DNA of 64,000 bases from assembly GCF_964213995.1 (NCBI RefSeq), contig NC_135816.1, forward strand, positions 64,418,001 to 64,482,000. The letters are read 5' to 3'. Origin of the DNA: Mustelus asterias. Taxonomy: Eukaryota. The translations under genes were made by a program, and so were the position numbers. Position 1 is the first letter of the stretch. Each line of letters begins with the position of its first letter. Below, one piece after another: positions 701 to 46,687 of the stretch. The notes under the pieces are model-generated. The model ran no database searches. It had not been told where the DNA came from and saw nothing but the letters and a program-made list of their open reading frames with translations.

Positions 701-990
701 GTTTCTTTGACTGTATTGAAGTACCTCAGAGTGCAACATGATGTATGTAGAGAACACGAATATTATTGCACTTTGTGTGATGGCCATTTTGAAATGTTTG
801 TAGTATTCTTGTAGATATTTTACTACTAAAGTATATTTTTTGCAAAAATAAGATAGTAGAGGTAGTAGAGGAGTCCCCTGAGAGAATCTTGCTCTCTAAT
901 TGATATTAACATCTGCATTTTTAATTTAAAAGGTAGCTGTTGATAATTAATGTGTAAGAGATTTCAAATAAACTTATTTATTTCACTTAC

Positions 991-1308
991 CACCAATACT
1001 GATCACTTTTCTGATGGGAGAAGACAGGGCTTTATGTGAAACAACACAGGTGTAACGAAGCCCACTGACCCACTGAAAGGTTGATACTGCCAGTTCACTG
1101 ATAGTGGTGTAACTGTCTTCAGATTCCATCAGTACGCCCGAAGTAGAAATCCCCGAAGATAGCTGGGTGCTGGCAATGTACCAAGACACAGAGATAGCTT
1201 CTGGGTAGAAATTGCTCACCACACAAACAAGTTTGCTGTCAGTTTGCTGGGACACCTTCTCAGGAGATGGATGTAAGAGATAAACTGAAGGCGCTCTAGG
1301 CATGGTGG
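991..1308 (-). CDS. IgSF gene A, C1-set constant domain exon
   Basis: 318-bp phase 1/1 exon (ctcag|CC...G|gtaagt). Translation ATMPRAPSVYLLHPS..LVCVVSNFYPEAISVSW..YTCVVSHKAL has the C1-set CxxxxFYPxxIxVxW and YxCxVxH motifs. Downstream exons lie off the left edge. Confidence 0.93.
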
Positions 1309-1667
1309 CTGAGGTCAGAAGATAAGGAATAATTAGCTGAATTTCCTGCTATTGTAACACTAACAATGTGCAAGCTTATATCATTTTGTGTGTGTAGCTT
1401 TGCTATATTTTGCCAATCCATTTTCTAACCCTACTTTAGCCACAGCTTTAAAATTAAGTCTAATTTGGTCCTTGTTCTGTTGATCGGTGTCTTTATTTAA
1501 TTCTTGTAACTTTTGTATGCACACTTCAGATGTTGATGCTTTTGATGATAATACCTGACTGTGTATTAATGTCTATATTTGGCCATTGAATTCGAGTGCA
1601 GAAGGAGGACACTCAACCCTGGATGCTCTCTGGAAGAGCTTTACACCATTGCCTCACAAAATGACAG

Positions 1668-2985
1668 AATTGTTACGGCACGGAAGGAGACCATATGGCC
1701 CCTTGTGTCTGCACTGGCTCTCCAAACAGGCATTGTGAATTGATGCCATTCCCCTGCCTTTTCCCTGTGCCCTGCATATCGCTTCTATTCAAATAATCAT
1801 CTACTGCCCTCTTGAATGTCTCAATTGAACCTGTCTCCACCACAATTCTAGGTAGTGAATTCCAGACTCAAACCATTTGCTATATGAAAAACTTTTTTCT
1901 TCTTTTGCAAATTTCTTCTTTTTGCAAATCTCTTTAAATCTGTGCTCTCTCATTCTTGATCCTTTTTATGAATGGGAACAGTTTCTCCATATCTACTCTG
2001 CCCAACCCTATCATGATTTTTAACATCTCTATCAAATGTCCTCTTAGCCTTCGCTCCAAGGAGTACAGTCCCAACTTCTCCAGTCTATCCTCATAACTGA
2101 GGTTTTTCATCCCTGGAACTATTCTTGTAAACCACTTCTGCACTCTCTCCAATGTGTTCACCTCCTTTCTGTAATGTGGTGTACAGAACTATACACAATA
2201 TTCCAGCTGAGGTCTAACTAGTATTTTGTATAAATTCAGCATAACCTTCTTGCTCTTGTACTTTATGACCCTATTAATAAAGCCCAGAATACTATATGTT
2301 TTATTAACTGCTCTCTCCATCTGTCCTGCCATCTTCAATGATCTATTCACATAAATACCCAGGTCTTTGGGGAGGCGATGGCCTAGTGGTATTATCGTTA
2401 GACTATTAATCCAGAAACTCAGTTAATGTTTTGGGGACCTGGGTTTGAATCCTGCCATGTCAGATGGTGGAATTTGAATACAATAAAGAACAATCTGGCA
2501 TTAAGAATCTACTGATGACCATGAAACCATTGTCAATTCTCGAAAGAACCTATCTGGTTCACTAATGTCCTTTAGGGAAGGAAATCTTCAGTCCTTACCT
2601 GGTCTGGCCTGCATGTGACTCCAGAGCCACAGCAATGCGGTTGACTCTCAACTGCCCTCCAAGGGCAATGAGGGATGGGCAATAAATGCTGGCCAGCCAG
2701 CAAAGCCTATGTCCCACAAGTGCAGAATAAAAAAGGCCCCTCTTCTCCTGCACCTCTTTTAGAATTTTACCCCTTATTTAATTTTGTCTCCCCAAGTTCT
2801 TCCATGCATCACTTCACGCTTCTCTGCATTGAACTTCATCTGCCACCTATCTGCCCACTTCACCGACTTGTCTGTGTCCTTTTAAAGTCCTACATGGTCC
2901 TCCTCACAGTTCACAATACTTCTGGTTTTATATCATGGGTAAACTATGAAATTGTCTCCTGCACACCAAGATCTAGACCATTAAT
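1668..2985 (-). mobile_element. CR1 LINE 3' fragment interrupted by a SINE at about 2368-2735
   Basis: LERVQKWFTRIVPGMKNLSYEDRLEKLGLYSLERR, the CR1 ORF2 C-terminus. Confidence 0.85.
2368..2735 (+). mobile_element. Second tRNA-like SINE family (also about 9773-10390, and 23490-24695 split by CR1)
   Basis: TGGCCTAGTGGTATTATC..GGGTTTGAATCC head; tail GGGCAATAAATGCTGGCC shared with LINE ends at about 52895 and 61540. Confidence 0.7.
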
Positions 2986-3395
2986 ATGTCCCATATAAAA
3001 CACAACTAAGTCGCTGGTTGAAAAGACCAAGCTACAACAATAACAAGAACACATCTGGACCAATACAGCATCCAATAAAGATTGGATGTGTAGAATTGAT
3101 TACTCTTCCAGAGTGAATTGCTTCAATTGCTTCTTAGACCATCGAAGGCTGAGCAATAACTATTCCGTGATTCGGTTTATAACTAACTGTTGCAGGTTGC
3201 TGGAGTCAGTCGGGGGAGCTGCCACATTGCGAGCTGCTGACAGTGAATAGATAAGCTCAACAATCAAATTCCCCCTTGGCTGTTTGGAGAGAGTTAACAC
3301 ACCCTTACAGATAGCACACGAGGAAACTCCTCCCCGGGGTGTGGGGTTAACATTTGAGATCAGTCACTATTTCCCCCTAATGAATCTCCACTTAC

Positions 3396-3755
3396 CTGCT
3401 TTCACTTTCAGGATCATTGCACAGCCGCACCAGTCAGTCTCTTTGCTAACCTCACTCTGGCAGTAATAACTGGTTGAATCCGTCTGTTTCAAGTTGTCGA
3501 TTTTTAAGGTTAAGTTGCTCTCGTTGGTTCCGGAGAAACGGGTCTCGATCCCTGCCATTCGAGTGAAATGTGTAGATCCCGGCCTCAAGAACACCAGCCA
3601 TTTGATTTGTGTAGAGTTAGCGGGTACATAACCCCATCGCATCAGGCTATCATTCTCCTTTCTGCTGCTTATACATCCCAGTCTCACCGTCTCTCCCTCT
3701 CGACTGTTCACAATTGCCTGCTCAATTCTCAAATTAGCGTTAGATAACACCGCAT
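3396..3755 (-). CDS. IgSF gene A, germline-joined VJ-type domain exon
   Basis: 360-bp phase 1/1 exon (tacag|AT...G|gtaag). Has VRLGC, WGY, RFSG, LTLKIDNLKQTDSTSYYC and a J-like end WCGCAMILKVK in the same exon. Confidence 0.93.
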
Positions 3756-3859
3756 CTGTAAAGAAAGGCAGACAGAAATATTCAAGTGAACGCAAATGGG
3801 GGACAAGCGGAGGAAAGAAGTATTTTTTTGGGGTGGGGGGCAGTAGGGTTGTTGCTTAC

Positions 3860-9069: not shown

Positions 9070-9121
9070 ATGAAAATGCAAGGGATGTTTTGGTCGTTTT
9101 TTCTGATTGTCCTCCAGACGG
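9070..9121 (+). CDS. IgSF gene B, leader exon
   Basis: MKMQGMFWSFFLIVLQT then G|gtaaag. The second ATG at 9076 aligns with the gene A start. Confidence 0.88.
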
Positions 9122-9215
9122 GTAAAGAGCCAAGCTTCCTACATTGTCTTCATCTTCACATTGTCCTCACTGGAATTCTCCTCAACATTTCCCATCTCTT
9201 TTTTTTCCATTTCAG

Positions 9216-9560
9216 ATCCACTTTTCTCCCACACTACTCTACACATATCATCCACCACTGTGTCCAGTCAGGAGGGAGCATCGGTGACACTCCAGTGTCG
9301 AACCAGCCAGGACAACCTCCTTACCAAGTGGGGTTATGTGCCGCCTGGCTCCACCGAGATCAAGTGGCTCGTGTCCTGGAGGCCGGGATCTAACAATTTT
9401 ACTCGAATGCCGGGGATCGAACCCCGTTTTTCCGGATCCGGTGAGAACACTTTAAAAATCGACAACGTGAAACAGGAGGATTCGGCCAGATACTATTGTC
9501 AAAATGAGAAAGAAGCTGACGACTGGTGTGGCTGTGGAACTACACTGAAGGTGAAACCAA
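9216..9560 (+). CDS. IgSF gene B, germline-joined VJ-type domain exon
   Basis: 345-bp phase 1/1 exon (ttcag|AT...A|gtaagt). Has VTLQC, WGY, RFSGSG, LKIDNVKQEDSARYYC, and WCGCGTTLKVK. Confidence 0.94.
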
Positions 9561-10611
9561 GTAAGTGATAGGAAATATTTAGCCAAGTGGGAGGACTTAA
9601 TCTGGCTGCCAAATGAACTGAATCCCTCGCCACCCCTCCGCCATAGCTAAGAAAGAACCTACTTGTTGAGGAGCAATGATCTAGAGGTCACCAAAAGAGG
9701 ATTATTCCCTCTTCAATGTCCTACAAGCATTTCAAATATAATCGGCTCCACAGAGTGTAATGGGGATCATTAAGCAGTGGTGTAGTGGTATTATCACTGG
9801 GCTAGTAATCCACGGACACGGTAAATGGTGGAGGTTTGAATTCAATAAAAATATGGAATTAAGAATCTACTGATGACCATGAAGCCATTGTCAATTGTCA
9901 TACAAACCCATCCTTCTGGGTGGCATGGTGTCACAGTGGTTAGCATTGCTGCCTCAGTGCCAGGGACTTGGGTTCGATTCCTGACTTGGATGATTGTCTG
10001 TGCGGAGTCTGCACATTCTCCCCGTGTCTGTGTGGGTTTCCTCCGGGTGCTCCAGTTACCTCCCACAGTCTGAAAGACATGCTGGTTTGGTGCATTGGCC
10101 ATGCTAAATTCTCCCTCAGTGTACCCGAACAGGTGCTGGAGTGTGGCGATTCGGGGATTTTCACAGGAGCTTCATTGTGGTGTTAATGTAAGCCTACTTG
10201 TGACACTAATAAATAAACTTTAAAGCTTTAAGGAAAGAAATCTGCTGTCCTTACCTGGTCTGGCCTACATGTGACTCCAAACTCAGCAATGTGGTTGTTT
10301 CTTAACGGCACTCTGAAATGGCAATTCGGGACGGACAACAAATGCTGGCACTTGCCAGTCATGTCCAAATCCCATCAAAGAATTTAAAAAAATAATATTG
10401 GTGATTGTACTGGCATAAGGTATTTCTCTTTTATTGTGGTAATGGGGATGTCTTGGTGTTTTTCTTATGGACAATTTGGAATTAATTTATATGGAACAAA
10501 GTCAGTAATATCCACCTGATACAGATGGACTGGGGGAGTGTCAATTGGGTGAAACTGGTACAGGTGGAACGGGATGGAGTCAATGATGTAGATAAATCTG
10601 AACAAAAGTTT

Positions 10612-11355
10612 TAGGAACTCTAGGCCATTCAGCCCCTTGAGCCTATTCAGTAAGATCATGGCTGATCTAATTATGGCTCCAACTCCACATTCCTCACCAT
10701 CCCCCATAACCCTTGACCCCATTGTAGATCAAAAACCTATCTAACACAGATTTGATTAGATTCAATGTCCTTTGCCTCCACCACTCTTGAGGAAGAGAGT
10801 TCCAAATACTCACAACCCTCTGAGAGAAAAAAGTTCTCATCCCTGTCTTAAATGGGAGACCTCTTATTTTTAATTGTGTCCCCTAGTTCTGGTCTCTCCA
10901 ATAAGAGGAATGATCTTCCCAGTATCCACTCTGTCGGGACCCTTCAGGATTTTACATATTTCAGGAAGATCACTTCTCAATCTTCTAAATTCCAATGCCC
11001 AGCCTTTCCACCCTTTCCTGTGAAGGTAACTTCCCCCATCCCAGGAATCAGTCAAGTGAACCTTCTCTGAGTTGTCTCTAATACAAGTTTGTCCTTCCTT
11101 AAATAAGGAGACTAAAACTGTACATCGTAATCTAGATGTGGTTTCACCAACACCCTGTACAACTGGAGCAAAACATTCCTCCTTTAATATTCCATTCCCC
11201 TTGCGGTAAACAAAATCAATCCATTTGCTTTCCTAATCATTTGCTGTACCTGCATGCTAACTTTCTGTTGTTCATGTACCAGGAGACCCAGATCCCTCTG
11301 CACAGCAATTTCTCTCCATTTAAGGAACATACCAATTTTTAATTCTTCCTGCCAA
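10612..11355 (-). mobile_element. CR1 3' fragment
   Basis: Degenerate ORF2 C-terminus and CR1 3' stem-loop. Confidence 0.8.
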
Positions 11356-11449
11356 ATATTGGGCATGACAATGGGGTGAAGCTGGTACAGATGGATCAGG
11401 GGCAGGGCCAATGCGTTGAGGCTGGCACAGATGGATCAGGGGCAGAGCC

Positions 11450-12012
11450 ATAGAGTCATAGAGTCATAGAGGTTTACAGCATGGAAACAGGCCCTTCGGC
11501 CCAACTTGTCCATGCCGCCCTTTTTTTTGAAATCCCTAAGCTAATCCCAATTGCCTGCATTTGGCCCATATCCCTCTATACCCATCGTACCCCCCATGTA
11601 ACTATCTAAATGCTTTTAAAAAGATAAAATTGTACCCGCCTCTACTACTACCTCTGGCAGCTTGTTCCAGACACTCACCATCCTCTGTGTGAAAAAATTG
11701 CCCCTCTGGACACTTTTGTATCACTCTCCTCTCACCTTAAACCTATGCCCTCTAGTTTTAGACTCCCCTACCTTTGGGAAAAGATATTGACTATCTAGCT
11801 TGTCTATGCCCCTCATTATTTTGTAGACCCCTCAGCCTCCTACGCTCCAGAGAAAAAAGTCCCAGTCTATTCAGCCTCTCCTTATAACTCAATCCATCAA
11901 GTCCCGGTAGCATCCTAGTAAATCTTTTCTGCACTCTTTTTAGTTTAATAATATCCTTTCTATAATAGGGTGACCAGAACTGTACACAGTATTCCAAGTG
12001 TGGCCTTACCAA
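11450..12012 (-). mobile_element. CR1 3' fragment inserted into the minisatellite
   Basis: (CATAGAGT)n tail; [14 protein letters not shown]. Confidence 0.85.
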
Positions 12013-12105
12013 TTCCTGAAGAAGGAGCTCAAGGCTCCGAAAGCTTGTGGCTTTTGTTACCAAATAAACCTGGTGGACTTTAACCTGGTGTTGTTAAACT
12101 TCTTA
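12013..12105 (+). mobile_element. Penelope pLTR fragment with hammerhead-like core
   Basis: Nearly identical to 46559-46650; CTGAAGA-AGGAGC..GCTCC-GAAAGCTT. Confidence 0.8.
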
Positions 12106-13383
12106 CAGATGGAGTGGGGCAGAGCCAAAGGGTGAAGCTGGAACAGTTGGAATGGGGCAGCGCCAATGGGGTGAAGCTGGTACAAATGGATCGGGGCAGC
12201 GCCAATGGGGTGAAGCTGGTACAGATGGAATGAGGCAGCGCCAATGGGGGTGAAGCTGGTACAGATGGAATGGGGCAGGGCCAATGGGGTGAAGCTGGTA
12301 CAGATGGAGTGAGGCAGGGCCAATGGGGTGAAGCTGGTACAGACAGAATGGGGCAGCGCCAATGGGGGTGAAGCTGGTACAGATGGAGTGAGGCAGGGCC
12401 AATGGGGTGAAGCTGGTACAGATGGAGTGAGGCAGGGCCAATGGGGTGAAGCTGGTACAGATGGAATGGGGCAGAGCCAATGGGGGTGAAGCTGGTACAG
12501 ATGGAATGAGGCAGGGCCAATGGGGTGAAGCTGGTACAGATGGAGTGAGGCAGGGCCAATGGGGTGAAGCTGGTACAGATGGAATGGGGCAGAGCCAATG
12601 GGGGTGAAGCTGGTACAGATGGAGTGAGGCAGGGCCAATGGGGTGAAGCTGGTACAGATGGAATGGGGCAGGGCCAATGGGGGTGAAGCTGGTACAGATG
12701 GAATGGGGCAGGGCCAATGGGGTGAAGCTGGTACAGATGGATCAGGGGCAGCGTCAATGGGGGTGAAGCTGGTACAGATGGAATCGGGCATAGCCAATGG
12801 GGGTGAAGCTGGTACAGATGGATCAGGGGCAACGTCAATGGGGGTGAAGCTGGTACAGATGGAGTGAGGCAGGGCCAATGGGGTGAAGCTGGTACAGATG
12901 GAATGGGGCAGAGCCAATGGGGGTGAAGCTGGTACAGATGGAATGAGGCAGGGCCAATGGGGTGAAGCTGGTACAGATGGAGTGAGGCAGGGCCAATGGG
13001 GTGAAGCTGGTACAGATGGAATGGGGCAGAGCCAATGGGGGTGAAGCTGGTACAGATGGAGTGAGGCAGGGCCAATGGGGTGAAGCTGGTACAGATGGAA
13101 TGGGGCAGGGCCAATGGGGGTGAAGCTGGTACAGATGGAATGGGGCAGGGCCAATGGGGTGAAGCTGGTACAGATGGATCAGGGGCAGCGTCAATGGGGG
13201 TGAAGCTGGTACAGATGGAATCGGGCATAGCCAATGGGGGTGAAGCTGGTACAGATGGATCAGGGGCAACGTCAATGGGGGTGAAGCTGGTACAGATGGA
13301 GTGGGGCAGGGCCAATGGGGTGAAGCTGGTACAGATGGATCAGGGGCAGGGCCAATGGGGTGAAGCTGGTACAGATGGATCAG
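12106..13383 (+). repeat. G-rich minisatellite, 39-40 bp unit, about 32 copies
   Basis: Unit CCAATGGGG(G)TGAAGCTGGTACAGATGGA(A/G)TG(G/A)GGCAGGG; further copies at about 11367-11450 and degenerate ones at about 10515-10600. Confidence 0.97.
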
Positions 13384-14078
13384 CTATGCGAATTTCAAGG
13401 ATACCATTCATTTAATTGAACATTTATCAACGATGTTGTGTTTGGTTTTCCCAAATTAGATAATAAAATGGTCTCTTGCTTTGAAACGTATACTATGATT
13501 GTAAGTTTAACTGATTTACCCAGGATACATTAAATCTCTCAGAGAAAGCAACTAATGCAGCTCAGCCAATCCACGGCAAACATAGAAACCTACTGATTCC
13601 TTAACACAGCGTTAACTATCTGCCAGATTAATCCAGATCATTACCCGACAGTCCAAGCTCAAAGATCAATTCAGGCATTAAACTTTACACAAAGTATTTC
13701 CTAATGTCCTGACCTTGTTTGTTTAAACCAGTTTATAGCTCTGTACAGGCTATCAATGTACACCTTTCAAAGCTGATGAACCCAAGTTTTCCCATCAGTC
13801 AGTCTTACGCCAGCTGTTTATACATTTAATCCTCAGCCCAGTCACATAATTTGAAGCACACATATGGGAAAAACACAAAAGAAAAATATTTTGAGGGACG
13901 CTGGCTATAGAACAAACCTAATGCTTAATATTAAATGTGCACAAAAACTGGATTAGAAAAATACGTAAGAGATTCCATGCAACTAGCTTTAATCAGAGCT
14001 GTGATAGGCCATGTTGTTTTAATGTGATGAAATATAATGGAAATTAATTACCTTCCCCCCCCCCCCTTCTACTTTCAG

Positions 14079-14396
14079 CCATTTTACCAAGGCCACCTTC
14101 AGTGAATGTCCATTATGCACCTCCTGAGAGAATTTCCCAGCAGACTGGCAGTACAATTGTTTGCATGTCGAGAGGTTTCTACCCAAAAGAAATATCTGTG
14201 TCTTGGTATAAAGGAGGCATGCAGGTACTTTCAGAGATTTCACACTCAGGTAGACTGATGGATTCAGATGGTCGTTACACCATGATCAGCAAATTAGCAA
14301 TTTCAACATCGCAATGGCTCAATGGCTCTCGTTATACTTGCATTGTTTCGCATGAAGCCCTGTCTTTGCCAGTCATCAGAACGATCGGTAAAGATG
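14079..14396 (+). CDS. IgSF gene B, first C1-set exon
   Basis: 318-bp phase 1/1 exon, same length as gene A C exon. IVCMSRGFYPKEISVSW..YTCIVSHEAL. Confidence 0.93.
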
Positions 14397-15044
14397 GTAG
14401 GTTTATTAAACAGATTGTTTTCAGATTCTGTATGGAAGCTTTATTAAATACTGGCTTCTAATTAAGTCTCACCACTTTAACAGAACAGGGTGTTTTTAGT
14501 CAATGTGTCATGGGTTCAGTGTTGTTATTGCTGAGGCTGTAATATTTATTAATGTATTATATAAAACATTAAAAATACAGACTTTTCCTTATTTCGATCT
14601 TTTGGTTACAGTCAGGCATTAGATGTATAGCGTATTTAGGAGTAAGAAAGGATGATTGGATTTAATAAACATCTCCCTTCTTAGTAGCTAAACCCCACTG
14701 ACATCAACAATTGATTCAATTAATTCCCTATCCAGAAACACCAGCATACAGGAGCAATAAGTTCTCATTTGCACCTTTATTTGTCTTCAATTCAGTTGAA
14801 GTCGGCGAGATCTATAGTATTAAAATATTGGGTCCATGTGACAGAGGAACAAAAACTTTCTCATCCAAAAAAAGACCACTGTTCATTCTCCAGTCTCCTC
14901 GTCATATTGCAGAGGTATTACCCACCAGATCGTCACAGTGTGTTTTTTCTGAAATTAGTGCAGGCCACTACTGACATTGGCCATTTGTACTTCATGCACC
15001 AGTTTCAAATCAGCATCTCCCCCAGACCACAGTGAGTGTTGGTT

Positions 15045-15470
15045 AGGAGAGGAATAGGCCATTCAGCCCATCGGGTCTGCTCCTCCATTCAATATGATCA
15101 TAGCTGATCCGATTGTAGCCTCAACTCCACTTTCCCGTTTATCCTCCATGACCCTTGACTCCATTGTCAATCAAAAATCTATCTAACTCAGAGTTAAATG
15201 CATTCAACGATCCAGTCTCTACTGCTGTCTAGGGAAGAGCATTTCACAGACTCTGAGAGAAACAAAAGTCCTAAATGGAAGACCCTTAACCTACGTCCCC
15301 TCAAAACTCCCTACAAAGGGAAGCAGCTTCTTAGCATCCACCCTGTCATGCCTCCTCAGGATCTTTTTTATTTCAATAAAATCATCTCTGATTTTTCTAA
15401 ATTGCAATGAGTACAAGTCCAACCTGTCCACATAAGTTAACCCCTTCATTCCAGGAATCAGATGAATGAA
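15045..15470 (-). mobile_element. CR1 3' fragment
   Basis: LIPGMKGLTY..LYSLQFR. Confidence 0.75.
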
Positions 15471-16060
15471 CTCATTAATTACCATGACCTTAAATAAGGC
15501 ATGAAGCATGTTCAAGGGACAATCTGAATGCCTCTCCATATAATTTTAGTGTTGCATATCAAATTACTAAAAAGGAATCAAAATATTTTATAATTACATA
15601 GATAGCTATATGTCATTATTCTCATAACCTTTTTGTTCCCAAAGTACAGTAATACTTCTGTTTGAATATTGTTAGTCACAGATGTCTCGATCAGACTCTA
15701 CCACTTGGGTACTCTATAAATCTTATGATGTTTTAAAAAACAGAGTTATAATTCTATGCAATACATTCCTATCAAATATATTTGTTTTCTCAATTAATAA
15801 AGTTAGGAGGCTTTTGGATGATTATTTGTCGTGGGTGGGATTGGTCTATCAAGCGTAGACAGCAGAAGAAGGAATTTGGTACCAGATGTTTATGATCTGC
15901 AAATACACTGACATCAAGAAAGGTATATTTTAATAATACATCAGTAAGTTACAGAGCAGGAAAACATTTTATGGTTTCTCTTCCTTAAGCTGTGCCTGTG
16001 ATTGTTCACCTTTCCCGGGGGTCTACATAGATTAGGAAAAGTCAGTGACGTTGTCAATTA

Positions 16061-16240
16061 TGATGTGGAGATGCTGGCGTTAGACTGGGGTGGGCACAGT
16101 AAGAAGTCTCACAGCACTAGGTTAAAGTCCAATAGGTTTATTTGGAATCACGAGCTTTCGGAGCGCTGCTCCTTCATTACTCACGTGAAAGCTCGTGATT
16201 CCAAATAAATCTGTTGGACTTTAACCTGATGTTGTGAGAC
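16061..16240. mobile_element. Short inverted Penelope pLTR remnant
   Basis: Arms about 16106-16158 and 16187-16240 are reverse complements; related to the 45.7-46.7 kb element including its tail. Confidence 0.75.
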
Positions 16241-16662
16241 ATGCTACATTGTCAATGGTAGCTGGTAGGAAAAGAATAAACTGAAATGTCTCCATTCTAT
16301 CTCATGTTCTTAGCTTATTATTATACCATTGAGTTAAATAACTGCAAAGTCTATTTATCAAGCATAGCATAAGTTTTTGTATAAATCATGTTATCTTGTA
16401 CTGAGTCTTACCTTGTGCTTTAACAGTTTAGGAACCATTGGGTGTTTTACCTGTTGTTTGGCCAATCAGGTTGTACAAAAATGAACCTAATGAATGTCCA
16501 ATTCTGCTTTATTGCAAAATTATTGATGTTACTTAAGCAGGATACTACTACCCTCTGCCTTCACCTAACATGTTTTAAATGCATTTGATCTGATGTATGT
16601 GATAAAGCTGTAAATATTGGTTTAATCTCTTATCTAATGATCTGTTCTTCTCCCTGCTGTAG

Positions 16663-16983
16663 ATGGTTATATTCAGGAGCCTGTCATCCAACTGATCTCT
16701 CCCTCTGTTGACGCAGCATCTGCAAGGCTAACTGTTGTAATGAGTTGTTTGGTGTCAGACTTTTACCCTGCTGCTATCTCTGTGACTTGGAGAGATGAGA
16801 ATGGCCCAGTGGATATAGGAGTGATGCAGTTTGCAGTGGCTTTGGGCAGTAACAGCACCTACCAGACTGTGAGCCAGCTCACCGTGCCAACAGCAGAGTG
16901 GGAGAGTAACTGCACTTACTGGTGTGAGGTGAAACACGTGTCTCTGGGACAGCCGATGCGGAGAGCAGTCAGTAAGGATCTGG
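16663..16983 (+). CDS. IgSF gene B, second C1-set exon
   Basis: 321-bp phase 1/1 exon (tgtag|AT...G|gtaagg). EPVIQLISPS..MSCLVSDFYPAAISVTW..YWCEVKHVSL. Confidence 0.92.
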
Positions 16984-17264
16984 GTAAGGTCTACATTAGT
17001 GTGCATGTGTGTGTAAATCGGTGGTGAGATGCAAGGACATGTGCATTTGTGCTTTGGGAGTCTATGGGTGGATAAATGTGTGTCGGTATCAATGTGCATG
17101 GTGTGAATGGATGTGGTGTTTGTTTCGGGGGTGTATATGTGTGGGTGTGAGCCTGGGTTGGTGTGCGTCTATGGGAGGGGGGAATTTGTGGGTGGGGTGT
17201 TGGTGTGATGTTGTTGGGCTGTGAACTTCAGTGTCAGGTATTGGGTCCTGCCACCTATGTTGTA

Positions 17265-31189: not shown

Positions 31190-32050
31190 CCTCATGCAGG
31201 AGGGCATGCCAGCACCAGACATATCTAAAAATGAGGTGTCAACCTGGTGAAGCTACAACGCAGGACTACTTGCCTGCCAAACATCATAAGCAGCAAGTGA
31301 TAAACAGAGATAAACGATCCCACAATTTACCTGGCAGGGGAGAGTCAATGATCAGGCAGGTTAATCTCCCAGGCTAGGGACGAGTCAATGAACAGAGAGC
31401 CAATGATGTTTAACCAAGGCATCGCCTGATGCAATTTTTCAAAGCCATCTCGGCCTTTTGGCTAAGATGAAGCAACAGATCAAGCCCAGGATGAGGTGCA
31501 ATGCCTCACCTTGTCAGCTTGGGCCTTGTTTGTCCCTCTTGTGGGGATCATGAATTTAATTGAATTTGAATTTGTATTGAAAAAAATTTGAAAAGAAAAA
31601 TAAGCGATTCCACAACTGGTGAATCTGATCTAATCTCTGCAGTCCGGCCACATTCAGCCGTGAATAGTGGTGGACAATTAAGCAACTCACTGGAGGAGAA
31701 ACTTCTAAAAGTACCTCCATCTTCAATGATGGGGGAACCCAGCACTCCAGTACTTTGCAACCACCTTCAGCCAAAAATCCAGAGTGGATGATCCTTTTTG
31801 GCCTCCTCCGAAGGTCACCAGCATCACAGCGGCTAGTCTTCAGACAATTCAATTCACACCATGTGACATCAGGAAAAGGCTGAAGGCACTGGATGCTGCA
31901 AAGGCTATGGGCCTTGACAATGCTCCAGAAGTTACTGCACCCCTAGCCAAACTTATTCCAGTGCAGCTGCTACACTGGCATCTACCCAGCATTGTGGAAA
32001 ATTGCCCAGGTATGTCTTATACACAAGAAACGGAGAAACCAACTCAGCCA
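31190..32050 (+). mobile_element. Degenerate non-LTR retrotransposon of unresolved family (related pieces at about 32780-33240, 41340-41575, 50450-50935, 61535-61970, 62920-63620)
   Basis: LKALDAAKAMGLD..APLAKL..WKIAQV pre-RT motifs; copies align with each other. Confidence 0.65.
31326..31600 (+). mobile_element. U1+U2 snRNA-headed SINE-like retroposon (SINEU-like)
   Basis: TTACCTGGCAGGGGAGA..ATGATCA matches U1 5' end; TCTCGGCCTTTTGGCTAAGAT matches U2 5' end; then body and A-rich tail; flanks TAAACGATCCCACAA (31311-31325) and TAAGCGATTCCACAA (31601-31615). Confidence 0.8.
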
Positions 32051-32059
32051 ATTAAAGCA

Positions 32060-32385
32060 CCAAAAACAGAAAATGCTGGAAAATTTCAGCAGGTCTGACA
32101 GCATCTGTGGGGAGAGAATAGAGCCAATGTTTCGAGTCTGGGTGACCATTCGTCAGAGCTGGAAAAGAGCAGTATTTCTTCAGGGAAGGCATTCCTGGAA
32201 GGGAAGTGGCAGTGAGTTAGACACGAAGATAAAAACTAAATACTGAGGATGCTGGAATCTGAAACAAGAACAGGAAATGCTGGGAAATCTCAGCAGCTCT
32301 ACTCTCTCTCCACAGATGCTGTCAAACCTGCTGAGATTTTCCGACATTTTCTGTTTTTGTTTCAGATTCCAGCGTCCGCAGTAAT
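32060..32385. mobile_element. Inverted repeat of a second probable Penelope-type family
   Basis: AAAACAGAAAATGCTGGAAAAT.TCAGCAGGTCTGACAGCATCTGTGG and its reverse complement; related pieces near 21055, 21290, 35205 and 58590. Confidence 0.55.
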
Positions 32386-33468
32386 CAGCCAATTACAGAA
32401 TTTCTTTTCTCTCAGTGAGAGTCAAGCTGTTGTGCTGAAAGCAGATGAAGTTGTTGTGTTCAACTCCGGAAATTCTACTGTAAACTAGAAGTGTTTCCAA
32501 AAGAAAACTACAGGTCCTATGTGGTAATTATTTGCTGGATTTGACTCATGGTGTTAAAACCTATGGGATGTTGTTTTGGGGGATGTGTAATCTCGGAGTT
32601 TAGGAAAGTAGATAGATTTGGATTGGTAGGGGATGTAATTCAAATACACTGTCTGGGTAACCATTAATTGTAGTTAATTGTAAATGTTGTTCTTTACTGT
32701 TGCCTTTCTCATTGTATGTTTTAAAGTTGAATAAACATTTTGTTATTTGAATAATTTACAAGACTGATCCCTTTCGTCACCCTGACTCCCCAGTGCCTGA
32801 ACACCATCTACAAGGCACATGGCAGGAGTGCGGCTCCAAAAACACTCAAGAAGCTCAATACCACCCAGCACAAAGCAGCCCATTTGATTGGTATCCCTCC
32901 CACAAATATTCACAGCAGCAGTGTGTGTACCATCTACAAGATGCACTGCAGGAACTCACCAAGGCTCCTCAGACAACCCCTTCCAAACCCACGACCGCTA
33001 TCACCTAGAAGGACAAGGGCAGCAAGGGAACACCACCACTTGCAAGTTCCCCTCCAAGCCACTCACCATCATGACTTGGAAATATATCATTGTTTCTTCA
33101 CTGTTGCTTGGTCAAGTTCCACCCTCACTGCACGGTTGGTGTACCTACGCCTCAGGGACTGCAGCAGTTCAAGATGGCAGCTCACAACCAGTTTCTGACT
33201 TTGCCAATGAAGCTCACATCCCTTGAATGAATTATTTAAAAAATCTGAACTTTTGTCCTGTTAAAATTACTAATCCATTTCCTTTATTTCTGGATTATGA
33301 CATGGAGCTGACAGATCTGAGTTATACTGCTGTGCACGAGTTTGATAAGACTCAAAGGAAAGTGCCCTCTCAGAATCTAGTTATTGGGAACATTTAGTTT
33401 ATTTCTGGACAAACTTAAAATAAAAAATAAATTTGTGCAAAGTGTCAGATTCTCAGTGATCTATGACC

Positions 33469-34891
33469 NNNNNNNNNNNNNNNNNNNNNNNNNNNNNNNN
33501 NNNNNNNNNNNNNNNNNNNNNNNNNNNNNNNNNNNNNNNNNNNNNNNNNNNNNNNNNNNNNNNNNNNNNNNNNNNNNNNNNNNNNNNNNNNNNNNNNNNN
33601 NNNNNNNNNNNNNNNNNNNNNNAGACACACACAAATACGGACACACACACAGACACACACACACACAAATACGGACACACACACACACACACACAGACAC
33701 ACACACAAATACAGACACGCACACACACACAAATACGGACACACACAAATACAGACACACACACAGACACAAATACGGACACAAACACACACACACGCAA
33801 ATACGGACACACACACACAGACACACACACACAGGCACACAAATACAGACACAAGCACACACACAGACACACAAACAAATACGGACACATACACACAAAC
33901 AAATACGGACACACACACACACACAAATACGGACACACAGACACACACACACACACAAATACGGACACACACACAAATACGGACACACACACACACACAA
34001 ATACGGAAACACACACACACACAAATACGGACACACANNNNNNNNNNNNNNNNNNNNNNNNNNNNNNNNNNNNNNNNNNNNNNNNNNNNNNNNNNNNNNN
34101 NNNNNNNNNNNNNNNNNNNNNNNNNNNNNNNNNNNNNNNNNNNNNNNNNNNNNNNNNNNNNNNNNNNNNNNNNNNNNNNNNNNNNNNNNNNCACACCCAC
34201 ACACACAAATACGGACACACACACAAATATGGACACACACACAAATATGGACACACACACAAATACGGACACACACACACACAAATATGGACACACACAC
34301 AAATACGGACACACACACAAATATGGACACACACACACACAAATATGGACACACACACACACAAATACGGATACACACACAAATACGGACACACACACAC
34401 ACAAATACGGACACACACACACAAATACGGACACACACACACACACAAATATGGACGCACAGACAGACACACATAAAGACACTCCATACAAAGACACACA
34501 CACAGACACACAGACATACGGACANNNNNNNNNNNNNNNNNNNNNNNNNNNNNNNNNNNNNNNNNNNNNNNNNNNNNNNNNNNNNNNNNNNNNNNNNNNN
34601 NNNNNNNNNNNNNNNNNNNNNNNNNNNNNNNNNNNNNNNNNNNNNNNNNNNNNNNNNNNNNNNNNNNNNNNNNNNNNNCACAAATATGGACACACACACA
34701 CAAATACAGACGCACATAAAGANNNNNNNNNNNNNNNNNNNNNNNNNNNNNNNNNNNNNNNNNNNNNNNNNNNNNNNNNNNNNNNNNNNNNNNNNNNNNN
34801 NNNNNNNNNNNNNNNNNNNNNNNNNNNNNNNNNNNNNNNNNNNNNNNNNNNNNNNNNNNNNNNNNNNNNNNNNNNNNNNNNNNNNNNNNNN
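33469..34891. other. Assembly gaps 33469-33622, 34038-34191, 34525-34678 (154 N each) and 34723-34891 (169 N)
   Basis: N runs. Confidence 0.99.
33623..34722. repeat. CA-rich satellite ACAAATA(C/T)GGAC(AC)n
   Basis: Directly visible; flanked and broken by N gaps. Confidence 0.97.
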
Positions 34892-35619
34892 NCAGAGTTC
34901 ACAGTTTAGAAGAGTTGTTGATGGTGTAATTACAGGGCTGCTGACCACATTTGTTCCTCTCCTAAAATACTTTGAGATTTCTCTCTTTATAAGAAAATGG
35001 GTCTGAACTGTTACTTTTACACAACCGCAACTTTCTGCAATTTCACTTCCCCATATGTGTACAGCACCTGTCAGAACTTCATAAACTCCTCTACAGTAAA
35101 TGAGGTGCAGTCACTGTTGTAAGAAATTGTGCTGCTAATTTGTGCACAGCAACATTCCAAAAACAGCAATGCAATAATGGCCAGATAATCTGTTGAGTGA
35201 AATAGAAATTCTGCAAATACTCAGCAGGTCAGGCAGCATCAGCGGGGTGAGAAAGAGAGTCAACATTTCAGCTCAATGAAATTTTTGCAGTTCTGATGAA
35301 AAGTCATTGACCAGAAAAGAATGGGTTGTAACCTCTGAGATTCCCAGCATTGCACTGGGGAGTTACCCCAAAAACGCGCTGGGAAATCCTCCTCAGAGCT
35401 TCTTTCTAGGTAAGGTTTGCATTTAGTTGCCCAGAAGTGCAAACGTCCCCTGAGCAATTGCCGTGGCACCGGAAACTCATGAAAATGTGATGAATATCAT
35501 AAACTTCAGATGGTTCTGACTGAGTCACATCAAGTTACCCAGAAATAGTTAGAATGAAAGCTACTTTGAACTTCTGGGTAACTATTGTACAGACCCAGAC
35601 CACTCTCCTCCATGGATTC

Positions 35620-38003: not shown

Positions 38004-38185
38004 ATTGCTTTTCGGCCTTTTGGCTAAGATCAAGCATCAGATCAAGCCCAGGATAGGGTGCAGTGTCTTTTCTTGTCAGCTTGGATCTTGTTTGTTTCTC
38101 TTGTGGTGACCATGAATTGGATTCAACTGGATTTTGAATTTGGTTTATGGAGGAAGCAAGGAGGTGGATATGGGTCTGCCCGGTC
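38004..38185 (+). mobile_element. U2 snRNA-headed element, second copy of same family
   Basis: ATTGCTTTTCGGCCTTTTGGCTAAGATCAAG followed by a body alignable with 31473-31575. Confidence 0.75.
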
Positions 38186-40150
38186 CATCTGCCATAATAA
38201 TTCACCATTCCTAGGAATGATTTTAACCCCAACACATTTTGAGGCTGTGGTACTTCCTTTATGGCTTTAAATTTATCCTCCAAAAGATGTAAGTGTTTAG
38301 CATCTACCCTGAAACCCAGAACTGTAACTTCATCCACCTGGAAAGTGCACTTCTCTCATTTTAAATGGATGCCCACGTCTTTTAATCTTCTCAAAACTTC
38401 CTCTATGTTTGCCTCAGGTGAGGCTCCTGTAGTCAGGACATCATCTAGATACATCACTACGTTAGGATTGCTCTGTAACAAACGTTCCATCGTACCTTGG
38501 AAAATGGCACAGGCTGATGAGACTCCAAAAAGTAAGTGTGTGTACTGGTATAAACCCTTTGTGGGTGCCACTAGTAACTGACCTCTGGGAATCTTCATCC
38601 AACTCCAGCTGCTGGTAGGCATGACTGATACTTCAGGCCCCCTGATAATTTAGCGTGGAGGTCCTCAATTTTAGGAATAAGATGTCTATCTATCTGAGCT
38701 TCTTGATTAATAGTTAATTTACAATCCCCACATATCCTTGCAGTATGGTCCAGTTTGAGGACAGTACCCATTGGTGCAGCTCATTCTGAGAACAGCACAG
38801 CTTTTATAACACCTAAATCTTCCAATCCAATCCCCCAAGTTCTACTTCTATCTTATAATGCAGTGAGCAAGGCACTGGTTGGACCTGAAAGAGTTCTGGT
38901 GTTGCCTTGGGATTCAAATAAATTTTGGCTTTAGCCCCTTTTATTCGTCCCAGTTCCTTTTGAAAAACCTCAGAGTATTTGCGCAGGAGCTTTTGAAAAT
39001 CTTTTTCATATAGATTTAATGTTTCCAACCCATCAAATTTTATCTCCCTCAACCAATCCTGACCCATTAGGCAAGGTCTGTGACTCTCAATTACTAGAGC
39101 AGGTAGTCGAGCTGTTAGGTTTCTGCAGGATACAGCAACTACTGTTGACCTTACTCTCTTCAATGTCTCTTCTATATAAGTAGACAAAATGGCTTCTGAC
39201 TCACTCAATCTCAATGGTTGCAGACCTCTTAGAAGGTAACAAACTGCCTGCTCCCCTATGACTGTGGCCACGGCTCCTCTGTCGACTTCCATTTTTGCAG
39301 TTCACAAGGCTCTGTTAACCTTCTCAATCTGGCCACAAAATCGGAGATTGACTCCCCGTGGCTCCCTGAATGGAATGTGCACCTCTACACGACAATTGAA
39401 AGTCAGGGATTAAAATGATTTTTGACCAATTCAACTATCTGGTCAAAAGACTTTGACTGGAATGTTGTGGCCATTCACACCGGTGGATTTTCCCATCACA
39501 CTGCAGTGAATTGAGATTTGGCTGGGCACTAAATTGTCCGATTTCGCTGCAGCAGGAGTGTGGTGTGAACGGCTGGTAAGATCGCACCCTTTATGTCTGG
39601 AGCTTCAGGCGATATTAGACTTCTCACTAGGCTTTAAGTTTGTGGGCCACAGACTGTGATTAGTATCACCTTTTGTTTCTTTCTCTGCTGTGATCTCATT
39701 TGCTACAAAGAAATAATACAGCCTACCGGTATATTGCCCCCAGTTTTCCACTCCAGGGTCAAATGGCTCAATCTTTCCAATTAAAGGTATTTTAACATGG
39801 CATATGTAGCTGTCTTTTGTATCTCAACGCTCACTCTCCTTCCCCTCTAGCTGCACACTGCGATTTCTCAGCAACAAACAGAAGTTTTCCCTCGTCGCCA
39901 GTGTAATAACTTCAAACGCAACTCGTGGCTTCAATTTATGAAGGGGTTATTACCAACAATATTTATCTATGTGCAAATGATGGGTCTACAGAACTGCAAT
40001 ACAGTCCACTCTCTTCTCCTCCCTGTCTCCAATTGAGGTTCCTCCCCGACACGGGACATGCGCCCTTGCAACCAATTGGCTTGGCTTCCCAGGCTGCCTC
40101 TCCATAGGGGCCCTCAGGGATCACCCCCTTAAAGGGGCCATGCTACCACA
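38186..40150 (-). mobile_element. Gypsy remnant 3: LTR, gag, protease, RT
   Basis: LTR about 39902-40150, TGGCGACGAGG PBS, protease MEVDRGA, RT YLDDVL, FLGMVNYYGR; ends at the U2-headed element. Confidence 0.82.
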
Positions 40151-44838: not shown

Positions 44839-45748
44839 TGTATTGGCGATGGATCTAAAGATATGGGACAAGGACAAAGGCGTTTATTTATTGCACTTTG
44901 TGGACATGGCCACCCAGTTTAGCATATCCACGGTGGTTTACAGCAAAGATAAAAAGACCATTATAGATAAAATTATGACCCACTGGATTGGAACAGGATT
45001 GGTGGGCATCATCTAAATTTTTGACGGACAATGGGGGCGAATTTGCAAATGATGAGTTTCAAGATATATGCAAAAATTTAAATATTGTAATAATGCACAC
45101 TGCAATGGAGAGCGCATTCAACAATGGCCTCTGTGAAAGGAATCACACGGTTATAGATGACATGTTGTATAAAACTTTGGCAGATCAACCGGGCTGTAAA
45201 TTGCATGTTGCATTAGCATGGGCAATGCACGTGAAAAATTCATTACAAAAGGTGAGGGGCTACAATCCATACCAGTTGGTATTTGGGAGGAATCCAAAGT
45301 TGCCGTCAGTATTAACACTTGCTCCCCCGGTGCTAGAAGGGACAAGCATTAGCTTCATGTTTTCTGCACATTTAAACTCTATGCATGCAGGGTGAAAGGC
45401 CTTCATTAAGGCTGAGGTTTCAGAAGGGCAGATAAGAAGGGTCGTAAGCCATCACATAAGACCATCGAGTGTATACTTTGAGAAAGGGGATAGGGTCTAC
45501 TATAAAAGAGAGGGCAAAAAAGAGTGGAAAGGGCCTCGGAAAGTGATAGGAATAGACGGCAAGGTAGTTATAGTACAACGCGGTAACCAGACACTCTTTG
45601 AGAGTAGTGGCACTTGGGTATGAATTTGGAGCATCTGAACAAGATGCTGAAGTGCAGGAGGAACCTTGTACCTCACATGCACATACCCTGAGTTATTATG
45701 AGGAGCAGTCAACATTAGATGAGAGGGAATCTGATGATCAACAAAGTA

Positions 45749-46687
45749 AGAAGTTTAACAACACCAGGTTAAAGTCCAACAAGTTTATTTGGTAGCAAAA
45801 GCCACAAGCTTTCGGATCCTTAAGCTCCTTCTTCAGGTGAGTGGGAATTCTGTTCACAAACAGGGCATATAAAGACACAAACTCAATTTACAGAATAATG
45901 GTTGGAATGCGAATACTTACAGCTAATCAAGTCTTAAAGGTACAAACAATGTGAGTGGAGAGAGCATTAAGACAGGTTAAAGAGATGTGTATTGTCTCCA
46001 GACAGGACAGCCAGTGAGACTCTGCAGGTCCAGGCAAGCTGTGGGGATTACAGATAGTGTGACATGAACCCAATATCCCAGTTGAGGCCGTCCTCGTGTG
46101 TGCGGAACTTGGCTATCAGTTTCTGCTCAGCAACTCTGCGCCGTCGTGTGTCATGAAGGCCGCCTTGGAGAACGCTTACCCGAATATCAGAGTATATTCG
46201 GCCTCTGATATTCGGGTAAGCGTTCTCCAAGGCGGCCTTCACAACACACGATGGCGCAGAGTCGCTGAGCAGAAACTGATAGCCAAGTTCCGCACACACG
46301 AGGACGGCCTCAACTGGGATATTGGGTTCATGTCACACTATCTGTAATCCCCACAGCTTGCCTGGACCTGCAGAGTCTCACTGGCTGTCCTGTCTGGAGA
46401 CAATACACATCTCTTTAACCTGTCTTAATGCTCTCTCCACAGACATTGTTTGTAGCTTTAAGACTTGATTAGCTGTAAGTATTCGCATTCCAACCATTAT
46501 TCATGTAAATTGAGTTTGTGTCTTTATATGCCCTGTTTGTGAACAGAATTCCCACTCACCTGAAGAAAGAGCTTAAGGCTCCGAAAGCTTGTGGCTTTTG
46601 CTACCAAATAAACCTGTTGGACTTTAACCTGGTGTTGTTAAACTTCTTACTGTGTTTACCCAAGTCCAAAGCCGGCATCTCCACATC
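45749..46687. mobile_element. Penelope-like element, inverted pLTR pair plus tail
   Basis: Arms 45745-46192 and 46203-46651 are near-perfect reverse complements. Each encodes a GIY-YIG C-terminus (RRVAEQKLIAKFRTHEDGLN). Flanking duplication ATGATCAACAAAGTA at 45734-45748 and 46688-46702. Confidence 0.88.

Follow-up and report, generated by a model that had tools for sequence, protein, structure and literature searches.

A SINEU-like family of retroposons built from U1, U4 and U2 snRNA pieces in the shark Mustelus asterias, and its likely Keno-like LINE partner

A composite snRNA-derived insertion in an older LINE

The window, by which we mean the whole 64,000-nucleotide stretch of DNA analysed (contig NC_135816.1), contains a SINE-like insertion at positions 31326-31599, flanked by 16-base direct repeats that differ at two positions. 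The 5′ target-site duplication, of 15-16 bp, lies at 31310-31325 (+) and pairs with the 3′ duplication at 31600-31615 (+), to which it is identical at 14/16 positions; a preliminary description of this DNA had given the repeat as 13/15, which is the same match without the first A. The insertion splits a host LINE fragment (31190-32060, +, ends approximate) whose best hits are 81-86% identical and whose search returned 1,681 first-look candidates. That the element had entered an older LINE was borne out: another copy of the host LINE (L157) contains an RVT_1 domain, and the 16-mer target is present once, without an insert, in 11/11 uninterrupted host-LINE copies at loci found via the right flank. 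The left flank is also well matched in 9 of those 11 copies (local score of at least 29 over 79 nt). A Keno-like identity of the host LINE was ruled out: when the window was compared by BLAST with the Keno-like LINE described below, nothing matched.

Contigs from the runs of two other organisms (X7 and X10) span both junctions of the insertion, which therefore predates the split of those organisms from the present genome. Run X3 gave no junction-spanning contig among the matches listed, and run X1, which may represent the same species or source, was left out of the independent count. The window copy, which diverges by about 8% from the consensus of the subfamily that we call A, is an old full-length member of that subfamily and an inert fossil.

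The window has several other features. Immunoglobulin V-set and C1-set exons, which mark the genome as that of a jawed vertebrate, are recognized by Pfam at 9107-17024 (+), and similar Ig frames, detected by motif scan only, lie head to head with them at 986-3855 (-). Two repeat tracts, at 12050-13380 and 33430-35100, are a G-rich minisatellite of 39-40 bp and a long array rich in CA. A long, near-perfect inverted repeat at 45740-46656 has arms of about 450 bp that are 97-98% identical and a 10-nt spacer; its miRNA-like hairpin score is below threshold.

Reference U1, U2 and U4 genes taken from the same genome were aligned to the copies and to a consensus of 36 copies. The first 115 nt or so of the insertion had been read as a U1-like head; a U1-like 5′ part is indeed present, of about 50 nt, and the remainder holds a linker and a U4 stem-loop. 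The U1 piece (31326-31373, +) corresponds to U1 nt ~4-51, covering stem-loop I and the end that pairs with splice sites; it has the divergence shared within subfamily A and is identical to the genome's U1 gene at 37/47 positions. BLAST aligns U1 gene nt 5-51 with 31327-31373 at 79%, and the Rfam U1 model matches 31323-31471 (E = 4.5e-7). The consensus head covers U1 nt 1-51 (42/51; score 33, against 13 for the best shuffle), of which the window copy begins at about nt 4, and its stem-loop I refolds with 11 pairs. This diverged head could derive from a variant U1 gene. In the 36-copy alignment the linker (31374-31397, +) consists of a few further U1 bases and then an incomplete second copy of the stem-loop I 5′ arm and loop; aligned alone to the genome's U1 gene, it gives no significant match.

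The U4 5′ stem-loop, nt 23-48, which we take to be the kink-turn region, occupies 31398-31420 (+). It matches at 20/23 positions in the window copy and at 26/26 in the family consensus, a score reached by 0/500 shuffles, and the Rfam U4 model matches copy L008 over model positions 22-50 (E = 0.11). A likely U4 Sm-site region (nt ~116-129) follows at 31431-31444 (+) as a weak match of 12/14. Its score against the 3′ part of U4 was reached by 8/1000 shuffles and its score against U1 by 459/500; as U4 sequence, this piece would be colinear with the U4 stem-loop after an internal deletion. Elsewhere in the genome, L036 and L038 are old, near-full-length U4 retrocopies whose structure is unrelated to the SINE.

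As had been noted, a U2 5′ piece comes after the head: stem-loop I, nt 7-31, at 31448-31472 (+), with 24/25 identities to the genome's U2 gene. It is followed by a non-U2 insert of 23 nt (31473-31495, +; 24 nt in the consensus), seen as a gap against U2, which supplies the 5′ side of a 50-nt hairpin (31477-31526) that is new relative to U2. Diverged U2 nt 31-103 and the family's 3′ terminus fill 31496-31579 (+), 66% identical to U2 over 79 columns. The roughly 100-nt body had been described as non-snRNA sequence, which is incorrect: the body consensus aligns to U2 nt 31-103 with a score of 23, whereas the best of 500 shuffles reaches 17, and within the body and tail region only the insert and the tail are not U2-derived. 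The stretch of U2 that pairs with the branch point is changed, so the RNA would not be a working U2; stem IIb is kept and folds. The A-rich tail was located in the sequence at 31580-31599 (+), as described before, and lies at the same place in the family alignment. The insertion was rejected as a functional U1, U2 or U4 gene, with Rfam scores below the gathering thresholds and no snRNA promoter match upstream.

Three subfamilies, their copy numbers and predicted structures

A related element at 38004-38188 (+) belongs to a second subfamily, C, and is cut short at its 3′ end (91% identity to nt 1-184 of the 224-nt C consensus); a search for its target duplication found none. It had been taken for the same element minus U1. 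The relationship stands, but the copy represents a U2-only subfamily that runs to U2 nt ~154. C consists of U2 nt 1-30, the same insert, diverged U2 nt 31-154 and a tail of 35 nt, whose terminal motif is also that of A. Read from the alignments, A equals C plus the U1/U4 head, with about 70 nt gone near the 3′ end. In a third subfamily, D, a U2 head is combined with a U4-like region that has been remodelled, with the U4/U2 junction of A and with a duplicated core; its U4-like region aligns to the U4 stem-loop via A only, not directly. The consensuses of A, C and D are 274, 224 and 325 nt long, and the mean identity of copies to them is 91% (55 copies), 93% (30 copies) and 99% (24 best hits), respectively.

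An 18-mer from the body has 1,840 exact hits in the genome and its reversed control has 0; together with the junctions common to the copies, this upholds the view that the insertion belongs to a multi-copy family and is not a simple snRNA pseudogene. First-look candidates numbered 3,469 for the core, 766 for the head and 2,618 for the copy at 38004. The first 29 distinct 18-mer hits, which were not selected by head, comprised 23 C, 3 A and 3 undetermined copies, and the 18-mer is intact in 6/27 head-selected A copies and 16/30 C copies, the C figure being biased upward. As rough estimates, A and C together have some 3,500-8,000 copies, about 850 of them U1/U4-headed A, with D extra; the figure for A is close to the 766 first-look head candidates. 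Before counting we dropped L081 and L084 (the same places as L010 and L002), L057 (the window itself) and L217 (a duplicate of L216), and the array repeats L144-L146, L159-L172 and L174 were left out of the counts.

The same U1 substitutions and U1/U4/U2 junctions recur throughout the 36-copy alignment, which points to amplification from master copies. Recurrent 5′ addition of snRNA pieces, as described for SINEU (PMC4494074), was also observed: among 30 core-selected copies, heads of several U1 types vary on a fixed core. They include near-modern U1 1-61 heads (L012, L016, L028), heads that reach U1 nt ~96 (L014, L015, L017, L019, L022, L025, L026) and stacked U1 pieces (L004, L008), and L091 has an extra U2 piece. 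Copy boundaries were compared and agree across copies, and the sequences that flank the examined copies are varied. Target duplications with a score of at least 10 are found in 8/57 near-full A and C copies, against 1/474 mismatched pairs, and none is detectable in the other 49/57. The young D copies have a duplication score of at least 8 in 12/24 cases, against 15/552, with lengths of 8-20 bp; this count leaves out six loci that share one flank (L219-L223 and L233). Nested or tandem insertions occur at 7/87 A/C loci and 6/30 D loci. At L232, L244, L246, L114, L102 and L218, family copies are arranged in tandem or nested, some parted only by the target duplication.

All three consensuses are predicted to fold more stably than their shuffled versions (z scores of -3.4 for A, -4.0 for C and -8.3 for D). 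In the 50-nt hairpin, the partner of the insert is remodelled U2 nt 43-62 (-22.5 kcal/mol, compared with -7.3 when U2 is left unchanged); in the consensus, the hairpin has a value of -24.3 kcal/mol, which 1/500 shuffles reached. Between C and D, the body hairpin keeps 19/19 pairs despite 8 changes, 2 of them two-sided (p = 9e-5; 0.002 when transition bias is allowed for). Compensation is weak for U1 stem-loop I (p = 0.016-0.10) and for U2 stem IIb (p = 0.014-0.057), the upper values again including transition bias; the pairs tested in all these cases came from folds of the same sequences, which favours a positive result. A new stem of 6 bp closes off the U4 hairpin. An Sm-like pattern is found in all three consensuses, but it is of low complexity and hence not counted as evidence; the U4-derived Sm-like site has no closing G. 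A motif in the body hairpin that resembles antisense U1 loop II was dropped as likely chance.

Each consensus contains three to five runs of at least four T, and a box B pattern has no match in any of them, which together make Pol III transcription unlikely. No RNA data set is among the matches listed, a result that weighs neither for nor against expression. At the loci searched, no copy of A, C or D is directly preceded by a U1, U2 or U4 upstream region, and recurring 44-nt upstream matches were rejected as an snRNA promoter, being a common repeat.

A Keno-like Tx1 LINE and the U2 nucleotide 39 site

The U2 arrays of this genome contain a LINE, L117, that encodes an ORF1 with ZCCHC3-type RNA-binding domains and zf-CCHC, an endonuclease, a reverse transcriptase and zf-RVT. 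Both ZCCHC3 RNA-binding domains are matched in Pfam within the Keno-like ORF1 (L117:1345-2241). The 3′ end of L117-type LINEs is a poly(A) followed by U2 from nt 39 onward, and U2 nt 39 is the insertion site given for Keno and Utopia in the available part of PMC4640811. We call L117 Keno-like on the strength of its AP-endonuclease and reverse transcriptase and of U2 nt 39 as its 3′ flank, a resemblance in these features. The LINE's ORF2 is spread over more than one frame. At 44.81-44.94 Mb of G000:C24 (L117, L118 and L159-L174), an 8-kb unit made up of an intact U2 gene, the Keno-like LINE and a U2 3′ fragment is repeated about 16 times, almost identically.

The 5′ ends of these LINEs begin with a U2 5′ piece in 15/15 cases examined. 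Nucleotides 5-50 of C match the LINE 5′ end at 40/46 positions, of which 27 lie in the common U2 stretch. The insert thus resembles the LINE's 5′ tip; beyond the U2 stretch the match extends only a short way, and convergent duplication of a U2 motif could also account for it. Near a U2 gene, at L119:3139-3217, a U1 piece of the A type is separated by 20 nt from the U2-headed 5′ end of a Keno-like element that comes after it. At L033:2200-2489 and L035:2420-2693, D-like copies follow U4 genes at a distance of about 0.6-1 kb in antisense orientation, and one of them is placed back to back with the 5′ end of a Keno-like element.

The preliminary description had proposed mobilization by an L1/Tx1-type enzyme. 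For D, the Tx1 part of this proposal is supported by copies at 7/22 LINE 3′-end loci, where 4 of the copies follow the poly(A) directly; these 22 loci were chosen by best scores for the zf-RVT domain and all belong to one Keno-like family, and pieces of the SINE family are found at 0/11 host-LINE control loci. A single D copy, at L175, sits at U2 nt 39 itself with a 15-bp duplication, beside a Keno-like LINE, and a LINE lies upstream of it. For C, three copies (L249, L250 and L215) carry the U2 site behind their tails, over U2 nt 39-53, 39-47 and about 39-49, followed by another A run; this looks like read-through from a master copy at that site. The link does not extend in this form to A: the search at the U2 site turned up no copy of A, and both exact-pattern matches were C. 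A target preference in common with the Tx1 LINE is thus observed for D and indicated for C, and for A the Tx1 link is indirect.

Older Keno-like pieces adjoin 2/116 A and C copies (L098 and L205), and one of the 29 copies not selected by head adjoins a Keno-like piece from the middle of ORF2. The U2-site motif is not clear in the 3′ flanks of A and C (1/41, against 3/18 for the LINE, with tail ends set by a rough rule). The tail of A and C showed no sequence similarity to the Keno-like LINE's 3′ end, so the LINE would need to recognize the element by its A tail. Most of the Keno-like copies observed are young (mostly 89-98% identical to L117), and many lie outside U2 genes; subfamily A is older, and its actual partner would therefore be an older relative of these LINEs.

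Proposed mechanism, alternatives and comparison with SINEU

We consider it likely that the insertion belongs to a SINEU-like U1-U4-U2 family copied in trans by the enzyme of a Keno-like, U2-targeting Tx1 LINE; the Keno-like LINE is likely the partner and not the element itself. The core would have arisen from a U2 gene that gained the 24-nt insert, which may be the 5′ tip of the LINE itself, and U4 and then U1 pieces would have been joined at the 5′ end through template switching. Pol II, starting in upstream DNA, could have transcribed a few master copies that lack a Pol III promoter; for the U2-headed subfamilies this DNA was probably the U2 gene they had landed in. The transcripts would have been polyadenylated and inserted by the Keno-like reverse transcriptase and endonuclease, and the folded RNA may have been selected in the master copies. 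Transcription is the weakest step of this mechanism.

Subfamily A might have been mobilized by another LINE, either L1 or a non-Keno Tx1, with the Keno-like enzyme used only by its sister subfamilies. The absence of A copies from the U2 nt 39 matches and of the motif from the A/C flanks is in line with this, duplications of 10-20 bp and A tails are generally known to suit L1 equally, and the LINEs examined were the best-scoring zf-RVT-bearing ones only (22 loci, one Keno-like family). We nevertheless regard it as improbable: A, C and D have a common core, A and D a common U4/U2 junction, C is near A in age and has the U2 site sequence in three copies, and the U1 piece ahead of the Keno-like 5′ end in L119 is of the A type.

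The compensatory changes, the low folding energies of all three consensuses (z -3.4, -4.0 and -8.3) and the perfect identity of the consensus U4 piece to the U4 gene would also be expected of retropseudogenes of a functional variant snRNA, encoded by a U1 + U4 + U2 host gene and kept in structure for a host function. This explanation is very improbable in view of the altered branch-point-pairing stretch, the existence of at least three subfamilies of differing ages with rearranged module order, the lack of an upstream snRNA promoter at the copies examined, and nested and tandem insertions like those of mobile elements. It is barely credible that the copies are independent template-switch snRNA chimeras, or that the body represents the 3′ terminus of a LINE that targets U2, and this explanation is already largely refuted. 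Heads do differ between copies, and snRNA/LINE chimeras are well known (PMC4494074), but diagnostic substitutions and junctions are common to the copies, the 29 unselected copies fall mostly into C with a single one adjoining a Keno-like piece, and the body aligns to U2 and not to a LINE. As a LINE 3′ end it was rejected with no match to the Keno-like LINE, which is the LINE that the 3′-end comparison covered.

Copying in trans by a Keno-like enzyme can be extended to a more ambitious reading that we consider unlikely as a whole, namely a lineage of snRNP-mimic retroposons descended from a Keno-interrupted U2 gene. Such a lineage would have kept the LINE's 5′ tip, re-entered U2 genes at the Keno site and borrowed their promoter. 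Its protein-binding stem-loops from three spliceosomal RNAs (U1 I, the U4 kink-turn, U2 I and IIb) might have been kept by selection to ride snRNP biogenesis towards the Tx1 enzyme, by analogy with Alu, which uses SRP proteins. It would have originated independently of crocodilian SINEU and would still be active.

The family would be a second large one of snRNA-headed SINEs, earlier descriptions having come from one lineage. Its U4 module, young near-identical subfamily and fixed-site LINE partner make transcription and head function testable, as promoter capture at U2 nt 39 and as binding by snRNP proteins. Thousands of copies will be mis-annotated as U1, U2 or U4 pseudogenes, and old insertions common to several species can serve as phylogenetic markers. 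In antisense orientation, a full-length U1 head would be expected to read as a consensus splice donor.

Among known systems, snRNA pseudogenes and U6/L1-type chimeras have an snRNA piece, an A tail, a duplication and template switching in common with the family (PMC4494074; available part of 10.1101/2025.02.02.635956). They are one-off events, whereas in this family internal rearrangements and substitutions have passed to copies that number from hundreds to thousands. The LINE partner resembles Keno in the AP-endonuclease and reverse transcriptase of L117 and in the poly(A) that precedes U2 nt 39 (PMC4494074; available part of PMC4640811), and differs from it in having many copies outside U2 genes.

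SINEU-1, -2 and -3 are described from crocodilians only, with heads derived from U1 and U2 and recurrent 5′ addition of snRNA sequence; their transcription and the purpose of the heads were left open (PMC4494074). The available part of PMC5381603 likewise gives SINEU as crocodilian, and those of PMC7245038 and 10.1101/2025.02.02.635956 contain nothing on a shark SINEU. A literature search that left aside most subscription journals, Repbase Reports and Dfam found no SINEU from a shark or ray and none bearing U4. The Mustelus asterias family works in the manner of the crocodilian elements, a likeness of design seen in the class features compared. Both are short, non-coding and A-tailed, have U1- and U2-derived heads and thousands of copies, acquire snRNA pieces repeatedly at the 5′ end, contain internal T runs without a Pol III box, and have targets in common with Tx1 LINEs of the Keno group (observed here for D and indicated for C). 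Subfamily A parallels the U1 + U2 design of SINEU-2, and subfamily C that of SINEU-3, with a U2 5′ piece, more U2 and a short unique tail. There are also differences. The U4 module has no counterpart in SINEU, for which PMC4494074 reports U1 and U2 only, the host lies outside the crocodilians, the duplications are longer, and a new hairpin is formed from the insert and remodelled U2. The common target is a site in the U2 gene, in contrast to the Mariner element (Mariner-N4_AMi) targeted in crocodilians. None of the three, the U4 module, the lineage of the host and the link with the U2 site, is described in PMC4494074.
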